Assembly: GCA_963753595.1 (NCBI GenBank)
Contig: CAVWCX010000002.1
Span: 68,060 to 132,059, forward strand
DNA from: Candidatus Methanoperedenaceae archaeon
Lineage (GTDB): Archaea > Halobacteriota > Methanosarcinia > Methanosarcinales > Methanoperedenaceae
Direction: 5' to 3'
DNA length: 64,000 nucleotides
Below are positions 34,901 through 38,420 of this stretch, in pieces. Positions within the stretch are counted from its first letter, which is position 1; each line of letters opens with the position of its first letter. A program made the translations under genes and the position numbers. The notes beneath the pieces were generated by a model, which had not been told where the DNA came from, did no database searches, and worked only from the letters and a program-made list of their open reading frames with translations.

Positions 34901-35773
34901 TCATATTTTACTCCTTTCGATTGCATATTTATTAATTATCATCTTTTCGATTTCTGTTTTTGTCATCAGCATACTGTAGCCGCCATCAGAAACATTGGAA
35001 CCAAGGATATCAACAGGAAATGCCGCTGACTTGATGAACTGGTTATTTGTCTGGCTTGTATCCCTCACATCAAAACCCGTATCCATTCCGGAATATAATG
35101 TCAGGTCAATATTCTTTCCTTCAATGGATGCGATCTTTGGCTTTCCGAAAATGTCCCCTGACCCTTTTGCCCCGATGTTATCACTGTTTACGGGGCTGTT
35201 GGTAATATCGATCAGGCCAGTGTTATTTTCCTCTCCTCCAAAGACCTTTGTAATATTTGAAAGTGTATTTTCCGGTATCTGGTAATCTTGTGGGTTATTT
35301 GAAATAAAAACCATGCCTGCAATAAAAATGACCGTGATCAAGACCTTTGAGATTATCGTGCTTTTAGCCAGGAGTTTTGAAGGTGAAACAACCTTCATCG
35401 ATTCTGAAACTATGGTTTTCAATGATTCCACTATGATATTAGTCTCATCGCGGTTATCGTAGGCTGTCCTGAGTTTTTCATTCAGGTCAGGATATTTATT
35501 TTCAATCAATTTGATAACATTTAATTTACTATCCTTCCTATGCAATAAAATCGATAAGATGACGGCAATGATAATTGCAATAACAGGAGGAATGAATTTG
35601 ACCGGAATGGATGTGATAGGTAAGTATTTGTTCAGGAAATATTCAAGATTTATAATAATGAAAATTGCATAGAGAATGCTGAAAATTGCGATCAGGTCAA
35701 GGATAAAAAGCATCCGCATCCTGCTAAGAAATCCAATCCTGGTTTGTTTTAGCTTATCCAGAAATTCGTCCAT
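34901..35773 (-). CDS. Hypothetical membrane protein, first gene of the MoxR operon
   Basis: Three TM segments; IENKYPDLNEKLRTAYD. Confidence 0.7.
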   Translation of the reverse strand: MDEFLDKLKQTRIGFLSRMRMLFILDLIAIFSILYAIFIIINLEYFLNKYLPITSIPVKFIPPVIAIIIAVILSILLHRKDSKLNVIKLIENKYPDLNEKLRTAYDNRDETNIIVESLKTIVSESMKVVSPSKLLAKSTIISKVLITVIFIAGMVFISNNPQDYQIPENTLSNITKVFGGEENNTGLIDITNSPVNSDNIGAKGSGDIFGKPKIASIEGKNIDLTLYSGMDTGFDVRDTSQTNNQFIKSAAFPVDILGSNVSDGGYSMLMTKTEIEKMIINKYAIERSKI

Positions 35774-35862
35774 TCAGTCACCTTCACCCGCATTATTGGT
35801 TTTGATTATATTAAGTCTTGGGATAGGTAAGTTTATGTATTCAAAAAGGAATTAAGGCAACC

Positions 35863-35995
35863 TGAACCAAATTCTATTGGTTCAACATTAACCGTAGCAG
35901 GTTTTGGCCTGCGGCGTATGAATTGAAACAATTCGAATGCAGTAAAGCCTCAAAAGGTTTGCATGAGTCGGATCATAAATGATCTTACGGAGGAA
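35863..35995 (+). ncRNA. Candidate structured 5' leader of the rpl18e operon
   Basis: Five hairpins; closing stem CCGTA/TACGG overlaps the GGAGG RBS. Confidence 0.55.
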
Positions 35996-35999
35996 AAGA

Positions 36000-36362
36000 A
36001 TGAAAAATAATTACAAGACAAATGGAAGATTGCTGGACCTTATTTCAGGTCTTAAAGAACAATCCAGGAACAAACAGGTTCCTCTATGGCGCGATATTGC
36101 GATAAGGCTTGAGTGCCCCACAAGAGATGCTACTGAAGTCAATCTCAGCAGGATAAACAGGTACACAAAAGAAAAAGACCTGATCCTGGTACCCGGTAAA
36201 GTCCTGGGCGCTGGTGAATTGAATCATAAGTTAACTGTTGCAGCTGTAAGTTTCAGCGAAGGCGCAAGGAACAAAATAATCGAAGCCGGCGGTTCATGCC
36301 TCTCAATAGAAGAACTGATGAACAAAAACCCGGAAGGCTCCAGGGTAAGAATAATCGGGTGA
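36000..36362 (+). CDS. rpl18e: 50S ribosomal protein L18e
   Basis: [28 protein letters not shown]. Confidence 0.95.
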
Positions 36363-36366
36363 TAAC

Positions 36367-36786
36367 ATGACAGTAATAGACGCAAATAATCTTATTCTGG
36401 GAAGAATGGCAAGTACAGTAGCACAGCGAATATTAAATGGTGAACAGATCAATATCATAAACGCTGAAAAAGCGATCATCTCAGGCAGGAAAGATGCTAC
36501 ATTCGATCGATACCATGCTTATGTAGCTCGTGGTTCACGGGAATTCGGCCCTCGTTTCCCAAGAAGGCCGGACCAGATAGTGGCAAGAACGATCAGGGGT
36601 ATGATCCCGCATACGAAAACTTCAGGAAGGGATGCGTATAACCTGTTAAGGGTTTATGTCGGCGTTCCCCCGGAACTTAGTAAAGAACAGGCGATCACCA
36701 TAAATGACGCAAGTATTACACGTCTATCCACCAGTAATTATACTGTGCTTGGTGACTTGAGCAAGAGATTAGGATCAAAATTTTAG
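36367..36786 (+). CDS. rpl13: 50S ribosomal protein L13
   Basis: IDA..LILGRMAS, NAEKAIISG, PRRPD.I..RTIRGM. Confidence 0.95.
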   Translation: MTVIDANNLILGRMASTVAQRILNGEQINIINAEKAIISGRKDATFDRYHAYVARGSREFGPRFPRRPDQIVARTIRGMIPHTKTSGRDAYNLLRVYVGVPPELSKEQAITINDASITRLSTSNYTVLGDLSKRLGSKF

Positions 36787-36795
36787 GTGTTATAT

Positions 36796-37194
36796 ATGAA
36801 AATCGTTAATTCATCAGGAAAAAGGAAAACCGCAATTGCCCGGGCAACCATAAGGGAAGGAAAGGGGCGCGTAAGAGTAAACAAACAACCTATCGAAATA
36901 CTCGAACCAGCAATAATCCGTTTCAAAATGTCAGAACCTCTTGATTTTGCAGGTAATGTCATTCCCACTATCGATATCGATGTAAATGTCCATGGCGGCG
37001 GCATATTTGGGCAGGCAGGCGCTGTTCGTACAGCTATCGCAAGAGGTCTTGTGGACTGGACAAATGACACAGCACTCAGAGATGCATTGGCAACGTATGA
37101 CAGGAGTCTACTCGTGAACGACACCCGTTACAAACTGCCAAAGAAATTCGGCGGTCGCGGAGCCAGAAAGAGAAGACAGAAATCATACAGGTGA
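36796..37194 (+). CDS. rps9: 30S ribosomal protein S9
   Basis: [30 protein letters not shown]. Confidence 0.97.
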
Positions 37195-37197
37195 AAC

Positions 37198-37383
37198 ATG
37201 ATACCGGTACGATGCTTTTCATGCGGTAAAGTCGTCTCAAGCGTATGGGATGAATACAAGAAACGATCTCAGACCGAGGACCCAGGTAAAGTCCTGACTG
37301 ATCTGGGAATCGAACGATACTGCTGCAGGCGAATGCTGCTGACCCATGTAGAGTTGGTGGACCTCCTGGCACCGTACCAGTAA
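37198..37383 (+). CDS. rpoN: RNA polymerase subunit Rpo10 (N)
   Basis: [11 protein letters not shown]...RYCCRRM. Confidence 0.97.
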
Positions 37384-37386
37384 GGA

Positions 37387-37461
37387 GGGGTTGTAGGGTA
37401 GCCTGGTCCATCCTATAGCGTTCGGGACGCTGTGACCTGAGTTCAAATCTCAGCAACCCCA
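37387..37461 (+). tRNA. tRNA-Pro (CGG)
   Basis: Acceptor GGGGTTG/CAACCCC, anticodon arm TAGCG-TTCGGGA-CGCTG, T-loop GTTCAAATC; usual position after rpoN. Confidence 0.95.
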
Positions 37462-37586
37462 TTTCTCAGGACACGGCTATTGAATAGAACATGAACCACT
37501 CTCAGAGGGACTCTGAGAAAAAGAATAGTTAAAACAATTGAATTCATTGAACTTTAAGGTACTAAGGTTATTTTTGAGGTGATTTA

Positions 37587-37781
37587 GTGAGTGAAATAAA
37601 GCTGACGCGATATGAGCGTGCAAGACTTATCGGTGCAAGGGCGCTTCAGATCTCCCTTGGGGCACCGGTTTTGATAGATATTGACAAAGGTGAGCCCATA
37701 GATTTGGCTATGGCAGAATTAGAACAGGGAGTAATCCCGATAACAGTGAAAAGAACAGTAATAGAATTAAAAGCTTCATAA
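37587..37781 (+). CDS. rpoK: RNA polymerase subunit Rpo6 (K)
   Basis: [21 protein letters not shown]. Confidence 0.96.
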
Positions 37782-37793
37782 GGTGTGGTTTAA

Positions 37794-38420
37794 ATGGAAG
37801 ATATCATTGATATAAAACAGGATGTAAAACAGGATACTGGTTATGAATCGATCATTCCGCAGGACGAATACCTGACTGCAGGGATACATATTGGTACCCA
37901 GCAAAAAACAAAAGAAATGATGCGCTTTGTATACCGCGTCAGGACTGACGGCTTATATGTACTGGATATACAGGCAACCGACCAGAGAATAAGACTTGCT
38001 GCAAAATTACTTGCAAAATATGACCCGCAAAAGATCCTGGTCGTATCTGCAAGACAGTATGGTTATTATCCCTCGGAAATGTTCGCAAAGGTAATAGGCG
38101 CAAAAGCAGAAATTGGAAGGTTTATCCCGGGTACAATGACAAACCCGAAACTGCATAAATTCATAGAACCTGATATTCTTGTGGTAACAGATCCATCAGG
38201 AGATATGCAGGCAGTGAACGAGGCAGTCAATATCGGTATACCCGTAATTGGCCTGTGTGATACCAACAATTCATTAGGTAATGTTGACCTTGTAATTCCA
38301 ACAAACAATAAAGGGAGGAAAGCGCTGGCTTTGATATACTGGCTCCTTGCAAAAAAGACCCTTGAGGCAAGAGGAGAAAATATAACCCACACAGTAGCGG
38401 ATTTCGAAGCAGAACTTTAA
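37794..38420 (+). CDS. rps2: 30S ribosomal protein S2
   Basis: [33 protein letters not shown]. Confidence 0.97.

Follow-up and report, generated by a model that had tools for sequence, protein, structure and literature searches.

The DNA analysed here, called the window throughout, is a 64,000-nucleotide (nt) stretch from a Candidatus Methanoperedenaceae archaeon (assembly GCA_963753595.1, contig CAVWCX010000002.1, positions 68,060 to 132,059 of the forward strand). Our subject is the interval between a divergent minus-strand gene (34901-35773, DUF7502) and rpl18e, which encodes the ribosomal protein eL18. This interval carries a cis-acting structured 5' untranslated leader of ~140 nt on the mRNA of the rpl18e-rpl13-rps9 operon; all leader features and operon genes described below are on the plus strand. 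The operon begins with rpl18e (36000..36362; Pfam PF17135 and PF00828), followed by rpl13 (uL13; 36367-36786; PF00572) and rps9 (uS9; 36787-37194; PF00380). Further genes on the same strand span 37198..38420: rpoN (37198-37383, Pfam), a tRNA-Pro (37387-37461, found by ARAGORN and the Rfam tRNA model), rpoK (37587-37781, Pfam) and rps2 (37794-38420, Pfam). The Shine-Dalgarno (SD) sequence GGAGG of rpl18e lies at 35989-35993, 6 nt 5' of the start codon. Both the SD position and the homologues, which align from residue 1 at 36000, place this start at ATG 36000 rather than at the in-frame ATG 35979. The latter, which extends the frame to 127 aa, is located inside P6 and P1 (helices of the leader, see below) and has no SD of its own. 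Gene callers may choose it wrongly, and the open frames of 131-162 aa seen in several relatives have the same cause.

Upstream of the leader, the TATA box TTTATGTA of the operon promoter (35832-35839) and its flank are kept in all 23 upstream regions from the same genus, at a constant distance to the first hairpin. Archaeal TATA boxes are centred near -26/-27 relative to the transcription start; from the position of the box and this distance rule, transcription is predicted to start at ~35860-35864. These would be the first letters of P0, a 5'-terminal hairpin of 7-8 base pairs (bp) with a 6-nt loop (35863..35884), in which TGAACCAA (35863-35870) pairs with TTGGTTCA (35877-35884). P0 therefore sits at or beside the predicted first base of the transcript. 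Three of its 7 pairs show compensatory changes among the 23 same-genus sequences, and a hairpin can be seen by eye at the same place in a second family, f2. In most species of the genus (loci L006-L023) the P0 loop holds a run of 5-7 T, and T runs can serve as archaeal termination signals; the loop in the window, ATTCTA, has no T run.

Is this leader transcribed with the genes? Metatranscriptome contigs from two studies start at 35875, 35879 and 35880, upstream of the multibranch part of the fold, and run unbroken through the leader into rpl18e and rpl13. These bridging contigs stem from relatives that are 90-99% alike and, being contigs, do not define a 5' end. A further RNA run (X6) covers the locus only from 36023, with an adapter-like loose end, and is uninformative for the leader. 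The contigs thus give a weak hint that the leader is on the operon mRNA and that transcription has no start downstream of the fold, a start that the first-pass annotation of this DNA had named as evidence against its proposal. In Methanolobus psychrophilus, differential RNA sequencing is reported to show long 5' untranslated regions (UTRs) on most ribosomal-protein mRNAs, with a mean of 165 nt (PMC5378194).

Fold of the leader and its conservation

The plus strand of 35855-36005 has a minimum free energy (MFE) of -43.7 kcal/mol, against a mean of -30.6 +/- 3.4 for dinucleotide shuffles (z -3.86; 0/200 shuffles as stable), while the minus strand of the same stretch is less stable (z -2.58; 2/200 shuffles as stable). 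The first-pass annotation, made from the sequence alone, had named a TATA-like box, a hairpin, a set of stems and the GGAGG, all of which are present where it placed them, and the MFE fold reproduces the helices that it had drawn. Its picture of one multibranch loop with five branches did not hold, since a further helix, P3, had been missed; P3 encloses P4 and P5, and the branches are therefore distributed over a four-way and a three-way junction.

From 5' to 3', the leader consists of P0, a spacer and a four-way junction (P1, P2, P3, P6), whose P3 arm opens into a three-way junction (P3, P4, P5). The closing helix of the four-way junction, P1, pairs CCGUA (35892-35896) with UACGG (35986-35990) in both the MFE and the comparative fold. 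The last two G of its 3' strand (35989-35990) are shared with the SD, as the first-pass annotation had observed, and the structure thus touches the ribosome-binding site. The hairpin P2 (GCAGG 35897-35901, CCTGC 35908-35912) also appears in both folds, as do P4 (GAATTG-AAA-CAATTC, 35920-35934) and P6 (35971..35984), whereas P3 (CGGC 35912-35915, GUCG 35967-35970) comes from the comparative fold. For the strands GGATCAT (35970-35976) and ATGATCT (35979-85) of the first-pass annotation, the innermost pair is not formed because it would leave a 2-nt loop. P5 pairs ATGCA (35937-35941) with TGCAT (35960-35964) and encloses AGCCT-CAAA-AGGTT. The three junction strands are J3/4, of the form G-Y-A-U (35916-35919), J4/5, a GA (35935-35936), and J5/3, a second GA (35965-35966).

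To compare the leader across species, rpl18e was located in 39 of 41 related genomes and the upstream regions were extracted. In the 23 loci of the same genus the entire leader can be aligned, comprising the promoter box, P0 and a core of ~100 nt, and three loci of family f2 retain the core. The 26 sequences were aligned with MAFFT (A1). From A1, RNAalifold derived 27 pairs, of which 10 show compensatory double changes, and it added P3, whose outer pair is C-G in 18 sequences, U-G in 4 and U-A in 4. The GGAGG of the SD is invariant in A1. A covariance model built from A1 (R1) then aligned 55 leaders of the 56 loci supplied (A2); the leader of one locus, L117, matched R1 with the filters off but not with the default filters (55 matches from 56 sources). 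In A2, 96.2% of 1332 pair cells hold standard pairs against 84.7% in column shuffles, none of 500 of which reach the observed value, figures that are descriptive and not probabilities. Shifting the partner by 1-3 columns lowers the share of paired cells to 14-36%, and 20 of the 27 pairs have compensatory changes. Since A2 is fitted to R1, the count was repeated on two MAFFT alignments made from sequence only: the first gave 95.5% against 84.6% in shuffles, with 10 of 14 core pairs compensated, and the second 97.7% against 91.6%. The upstream regions of the relatives thus keep the fold through many compensatory changes, the structural conservation on which the first-pass annotation had staked its proposal, and the structure is almost certainly real and conserved.

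There is little doubt about the helices because many distinct types of compensated pairs occur. In P1, a U-A pair becomes C-G in 10 sequences of A2, and all 4 counted pairs of P2 are compensated. The outer pair of P3 is C-G in 26 leaders of A2, U-A in 11 and U-G in 8; a G.U wobble of the same helix is found in 47 leaders and replaced by A-U in 5, and family f4 adds further compensated forms. In P4, 4 of 5 pairs are compensated, and apart from the closing G-C pair, which is near-invariant (51/53 distinct rows), the helix is free to vary. The 5-bp base of P5 reads AUGCA/UGCAU in the window and ACGCA/UGCGU in most relatives; its first pair, A-U, is invariant (53/53 distinct rows) and the remaining 4 are compensated, while the stretch between the strands ranges from 4 to ~90 nt. 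Three of four P6 pairs are compensated. The peripheral helices drift freely in sequence and length, and some are dispensable. Within the genus of the window, three loci (L010, L016, L017) carry insertions of ~60-90 nt in P5 that resemble two or three extra hairpins, and two others (L013, L014) carry ~40 nt.

The most conserved part of the leader across the 55 sequences of A2 is formed by the unpaired letters of the junction. The C that ends the 5' strand of P3 is kept in 54/55, and J3/4 has its G in 48/54, a pyrimidine in 48/54, A in 54/55 and U in 52/55. J4/5 has G in 54/55, the one non-G being an A in L026, and A in 55/55. After P5, the letters G, A, G and U, that is the J5/3 GA and then a G and a U of the P3 3' strand, are each present in 55/55. 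Around P5, the resulting CGAAC and GUGAG could pair as C-G, G.A, A.G, A-U and C-G, and the C-G pair flanking the two G.A is kept in 52/53 distinct rows. Tandem sheared G.A pairs beside P5, as in kink-turns (K-turns), are therefore possible, with J4/5 supplying the 5' half and J5/3 the 3' half.

The junction does not conform to the known forms of this motif. A standard K-turn has a three-nucleotide bulge (PMC5061560) and can be ruled out, as the leader has 4 nt plus the hairpin P4 instead, or 7 nt where P4 is missing. A k-junction, in which the additional helix is described on the non-bulged strand (PMC10573300), is ruled out by strand topology: P4 is on the strand leading into the first G.A. 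Strand topology also speaks against a hammerhead reading of the junction. Two further ideas were dismissed. The conserved AUG of J3/4 could have opened a short upstream reading frame, but by eye such frames differ between species in length and content, and no SD precedes the AUG. Pseudoknot pairing of the P2 loop with the SD was discarded as this loop is unconserved.

Distribution and variant forms

The 151-nt leader stretch has a single DNA copy in its own genome, where a second covariance model restricted to the core (R2) likewise gives one match at E <= 10. Within the order, R1 matched 71 of 151 genomes, distributed over the families as 45/48 (f1), 19/20 (f2), 5/48 (f4), 1/6 (f6), 0/27 (f3) and 0/1 (f5). 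The shortfall in f3 and f4 reflects a limit of the model and not absence of the leader, as R1 misses a minimal form under genome-scale filters; the upstream regions of both families carry the core, and in small searches R1 matched 11/11 f4 loci and 2/2 f3 loci. On 31 loci of other families it gave a single near-threshold match (E 0.91). Each matched genome has one match with the exception of G004, where leader and rpl18e occur twice, on contigs C21 and C62, with proteins 98% and 95% identical to that of the window. This assembly is 6% contaminated, and the two copies are probably two strains in one bin. Several genomes also contain weak second L18e matches, e.g. G032:C1:1358959-1359081, which cover residues ~62-110 and have one in-frame TAA or TGA. 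These are likely the related L15 and L27A-type domain running over a gene border, a reading based on PF00828, which also matches L18e.

In a sample of the phylum, R2 matched 30/151 genomes, one match each (f4 13/16, f7 6/6, f15 10/10), and none of 118 genomes from 22 other families. As f15 belongs to another class, the leader is present in at least two classes. Of the 29 foreign matches, 26 are within ~100 nt upstream of the rpl18e place; the remaining 3 genomes are absent from our list of rpl18e positions. For g12, a genus of Methanosarcinaceae, R2 found the leader in 0/3 genomes under strict filters, while the leaders of two of these three (L025 and L114, from G036 and G082) matched R1 in small searches. 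When R2 was run on 80 named loci retrieved by L18e alignment, 32 matched, in each case on the same strand as the gene and immediately 5' of it. The records are titled Candidatus Methanoperedens or Methanoperedenaceae, Methanosarcina, Methanosarcinaceae, Methanosarcinales, Methanolobus, Methanomethylovorans and Candidatus Methanogaster, together with two named 'Methanobacteriota archaeon' and one 'Nanoarchaeia'. In the last (L137, 'Candidatus Nanoarchaeia archaeon') the leader is a complete one of the Methanosarcinales type (51.7 bits), and the L18e shares 58% identity with that of the window; the contig is probably mislabelled or misbinned. R2 matched none of the other 48 named loci, which include Methanomicrobiales genera, Methanobacteriaceae, Methanocaldococcus, Methanothermococcus, Methanomassiliicoccales, Thermoplasmatales, Poseidoniales, Bathyarchaeia and Odinarchaeota.

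What takes the place of the leader in the other lineages? There, the 5' neighbour of rpl18e is either a tRNA-Leu or a reading frame that directly adjoins it. In the regions upstream of 40 rpl18e loci sampled outside the leader-bearing families of the phylum, ARAGORN called 9 tRNA-Leu and 1 tRNA-Gly, in line with the statement of the first-pass annotation that a tRNA-Leu precedes rpl18e in many euryarchaea. In three further loci (L089, L100 and L102, of families f12, f19 and f21) a tRNA-Leu-like sequence with long inserts in the D-loop region is seen by eye directly 5' of rpl18e; these sequences, uncalled by ARAGORN, are probably intron-bearing tRNA-Leu genes.

The leader itself occurs in several forms. 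Its minimal form (L028, L030, L061, L067, L146) is without P2 and P6, and P1 and P3 are merged into one helix. In two Methanosarcinaceae-type leaders (L068, L071) P4 is gone, with 7 nt in its place. The most divergent example comes from an 'uncultured Methanosarcinales' whose L18e is 70% identical to that of the window (L130:300-401): it has neither P4 nor the first junction GA and reads GGAGA instead of GGAGG. This leader is outside A2 and represents a degenerate or differently working form.

The Methanosarcinaceae-type leaders have an additional feature, in that the six nucleotides 5' of the first junction GA are the complement of a hexamer starting at the last letter of the SD. Among the 30 leaders tested for it, one of which (L160) is of the minimal form, the full 6-bp match is found in 24 and a 5-bp match in 6; 7.8% of shuffles reach 6. 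The feature is present in L066, L068-L072, L114-L118, L132-L142, L173 and L175. Inspection by eye further indicates that the P3 3' strand of these leaders can pair either with the P3 5' strand or with a downstream copy of it. Taken together, the SD-proximal complementarity and the duplicate partner strand of P3 suggest that leaders of this family, and of this family only, may adopt two mutually exclusive folds.

Possible ligands and modes of control

The best reading of these data, and one to which we give slightly better than even chances, is a new ribosomal-protein leader bound by a ribosomal protein that its own operon encodes. Its position, its uniqueness in the genome, the contact with the SD and the small invariant core are hallmarks of ribosomal leaders, while protein binding and autoregulation are proposed by genomic position and analogy. 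An operon-encoded protein present in excess over free rRNA would bind the invariant junction and lock P1 and P3. The bound protein, close to the SD and the start codon, would then hinder binding of the 30S subunit or trap the initiation complex, reducing translation of rpl18e together with that of its coupled genes. As candidate ligands, uL13 would be favoured by precedent and eL18 by position, with uS9 less likely. The precedent comes from bacteria: the rplM-rpsI operon of E. coli is described as controlled via its 5' UTR (PMC6736130), and L13 leaders with three unrelated structures are listed for E. coli, Firmicutes and Bacteroidia (PMC7247131).

Several points weigh against this proposal. 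The first-pass annotation had suggested a comparison with rRNA binding sites of the encoded proteins, and here the search came back empty. Word and pattern scans found no leader core words in the 16S and 23S rRNA of three genomes, and R2 gave only partial, junction-less matches on 16S/23S loci (best 12.5 bits, E 0.14). A scan of the rRNA for helices flanked by GA on both sides returned 142 and 49 raw combinations, which are not judgeable without the true rRNA fold. The only fold-checked candidate with all three extra marks, at 23S ~2437-2458, is a hairpin loop and not a helix in the Rfam structure. Of the original proposal of an archaeal ribosomal leader, the part that stands is a conserved structured leader of rpl18e-rpl13-rps9 that is not in Rfam. 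Resemblance to an rRNA site is frequent but not obligatory among ribosomal leaders; its lack removes one possible support and does not exclude the model. Furthermore, P1 masks no more than two SD letters, which means that initiation would not be blocked by the fold on its own, and the natural variants L026 and L130 break the first G.A of the proposed tandem. As regards the evidence for fold and transcript, the relatives are not independent, so that the shuffle counts overstate significance; the RNA contigs cannot define a true 5' end, and RNA libraries may hold DNA. Lastly, the invariant core could equally be a small-molecule pocket or a site for a protein encoded elsewhere.

One protein encoded elsewhere is L7Ae, the general K-turn protein of archaea, which would recognise the junction as a K-turn-like site and co-regulate an operon that does not encode it. 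The invariant CGAAC/GUGAG permit a tandem G.A between P5 and a C-G pair, and L7Ae is reported to repress its own and other mRNAs through K-turns in their leaders (PMC5539422; PMC6298567). The genome of the window contains such a leader, on the same contig ~13.5 kb before the window. There, a C/D-box-like K-turn, a stem-loop flanked by GA on both sides, lies directly before the l7ae SD (L120:1395-1449; ATG at L120:1450), as fits the published autoregulation, and it likewise has A-U after the G.A pairs. However, the 3-nt bulge is missing from the rpl18e leader, where 4 nt and a whole hairpin, or 7 nt, separate P3 from the G.A; the extra helix is on the wrong strand for the k-junction described in PMC10573300, and the additional invariant letters (G-Y-A-U and the G.U) are unneeded for L7Ae. 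The L7Ae RNA immunoprecipitation sequencing in PMC5539422 names, in the parts of the article at hand, no L18e or L13 mRNA; it was done in Sulfolobus, in which the leader was not found as far as searched. We consider control by L7Ae unlikely. A riboswitch, whose junction would bind a growth-state signal in the form of a small molecule or ion and thereby set translation of the operon, would account for a small near-invariant junction core amid freely varying helices and for a closing helix abutting the SD, and the hexamer complementarity of the Methanosarcinaceae-type leaders (24/30 with the full 6 bp) resembles an alternative SD-proximal pairing. Yet no riboswitch family of Rfam 15 matches, the conserved core is small, and the element occurs in one copy per genome and only before ribosomal-protein genes, whereas a typical riboswitch class governs a number of genes for transport or biosynthesis. 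This makes a riboswitch a distinctly poor prospect.

Could the leader work without any ligand? A 5' hairpin that stabilises the mRNA, a processing site or temperature tuning would fit with P0 starting at or beside the predicted first base, and long 5' UTRs affecting stability and cold response have been reported for Methanosarcinaceae (PMC5378194). Stability elements and thermometers depend on pairing, though, and in this leader it is the unpaired letters of the junction that are conserved best, across at least two classes, while the helices drift; such a role is improbable. It is very unlikely that the leader is a relic or derivative of a tRNA-Leu gene, or a separate small RNA. A tRNA-Leu does stand directly 5' of rpl18e in 9/40 sampled loci of other families, and the leader has five arms like a long-arm tRNA. 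Since P3 encloses P4 and P5, however, they form no cloverleaf, and neither ARAGORN nor the Rfam tRNA model finds anything in the leader, as the first-pass annotation had seen. With no detectable similarity in either search, derivation from tRNA-Leu was rejected. The window sequence, moreover, has no T run between fold and SD, and the RNA contigs bridge leader and genes.

Returning to the ribosomal-protein leader, a more specific version can be formulated, which we regard as a speculative and rather unlikely extension: the invariant junction would be the site of eL18, the switch would also set the dose of RpoN and RpoK, and the Methanosarcinaceae would use two exclusive folds, with either P3 or an SD-proximal helix formed.

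Relation to known leaders and meaning

The leader is probably previously undescribed. A search with Rfam 15 returned no match in it at E <= 10 with permissive filters, and 0 matches at E <= 1 in nine leaders of different lineages, with L13_leader, S15, eL15, L4, riboswitches and tRNA among the models; the outcome of this search, which the first-pass annotation had proposed, is consistent with a new element. Full-text literature searches combining L18e with ribosomal leader, archaea or Methanosarcina UTR found no description. Eckert and Weinberg (2020) report four archaeal ribosomal-leader candidates, namely S15 (Halobacteria; Methanomicrobia), eL15 (Euryarchaeota) and L4 (Archaeoglobi), and their Table 1 and text, supplement aside, hold no archaeal L18e, L13 or S9 leader (PMC7247131). 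Those candidates are of the same kind as the element described here, conserved structures directly 5' of archaeal ribosomal-protein genes that are proposed to bind the encoded protein, but they belong to other genes and have other folds, and none of them matches.

Bacterial L13 leaders are another close parallel. Like the archaeal leader, they are structured 5' UTRs before an operon for uL13 and uS9 (rplM-rpsI), and the E. coli UTR is reported to control the production of both proteins (PMC6736130). In the Rfam scans they share no sequence or structure match with the leader, and the archaeal operon, unlike rplM-rpsI, begins with eL18, a protein that bacteria lack. The E. coli UTR is described as acting via premature intrinsic termination (PMC6736130), whereas the archaeal leader has no T run before the SD. 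Among archaeal elements, the K-turn leader of l7ae is likewise adjacent to the SD and contains a tandem G.A (PMC5539422), which is possible in the leader of rpl18e too; the copy in the genome of the window shares the A-U after the G.A. The l7ae element is a plain stem-loop of the K-turn type whose bulge has 3 nt, while the leader of rpl18e has a three-way inside a four-way junction, and a hairpin or 7 nt replaces the bulge. The k-junction of the thiamine pyrophosphate (TPP) riboswitch type builds a three-way junction around a tandem G.A, as the leader may do, but its third helix is given on the non-bulged strand (PMC10573300); in the leader this helix lies on the opposite strand, immediately 5' of the putative G.A.

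Archaea have few known regulatory RNAs. The leader spans both cultured and genetically tractable genera, Methanosarcina and Methanolobus, and two genera of methane oxidisers that are uncultured, Methanoperedens and Methanogaster; with such tractable hosts, binding and reporter tests are feasible at once. Within the phylum, this leader, a tRNA-Leu gene or a direct fusion to the upstream gene share one and the same place before rpl18e, a change at the level of lineages. If the leader is indeed bound by a protein of its operon, it would reveal how eL18, uL13 and uS9 are kept in balance in archaea, possibly together with two RNA polymerase subunits, and it would add a compact three-way-junction RNA-protein or RNA-ligand pair. 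As eL18 is a ribosomal protein of archaea and eukaryotes only, an eL18 site in the junction would make this the first autoregulatory RNA for that protein, and one that may couple ribosome and polymerase supply in these organisms.

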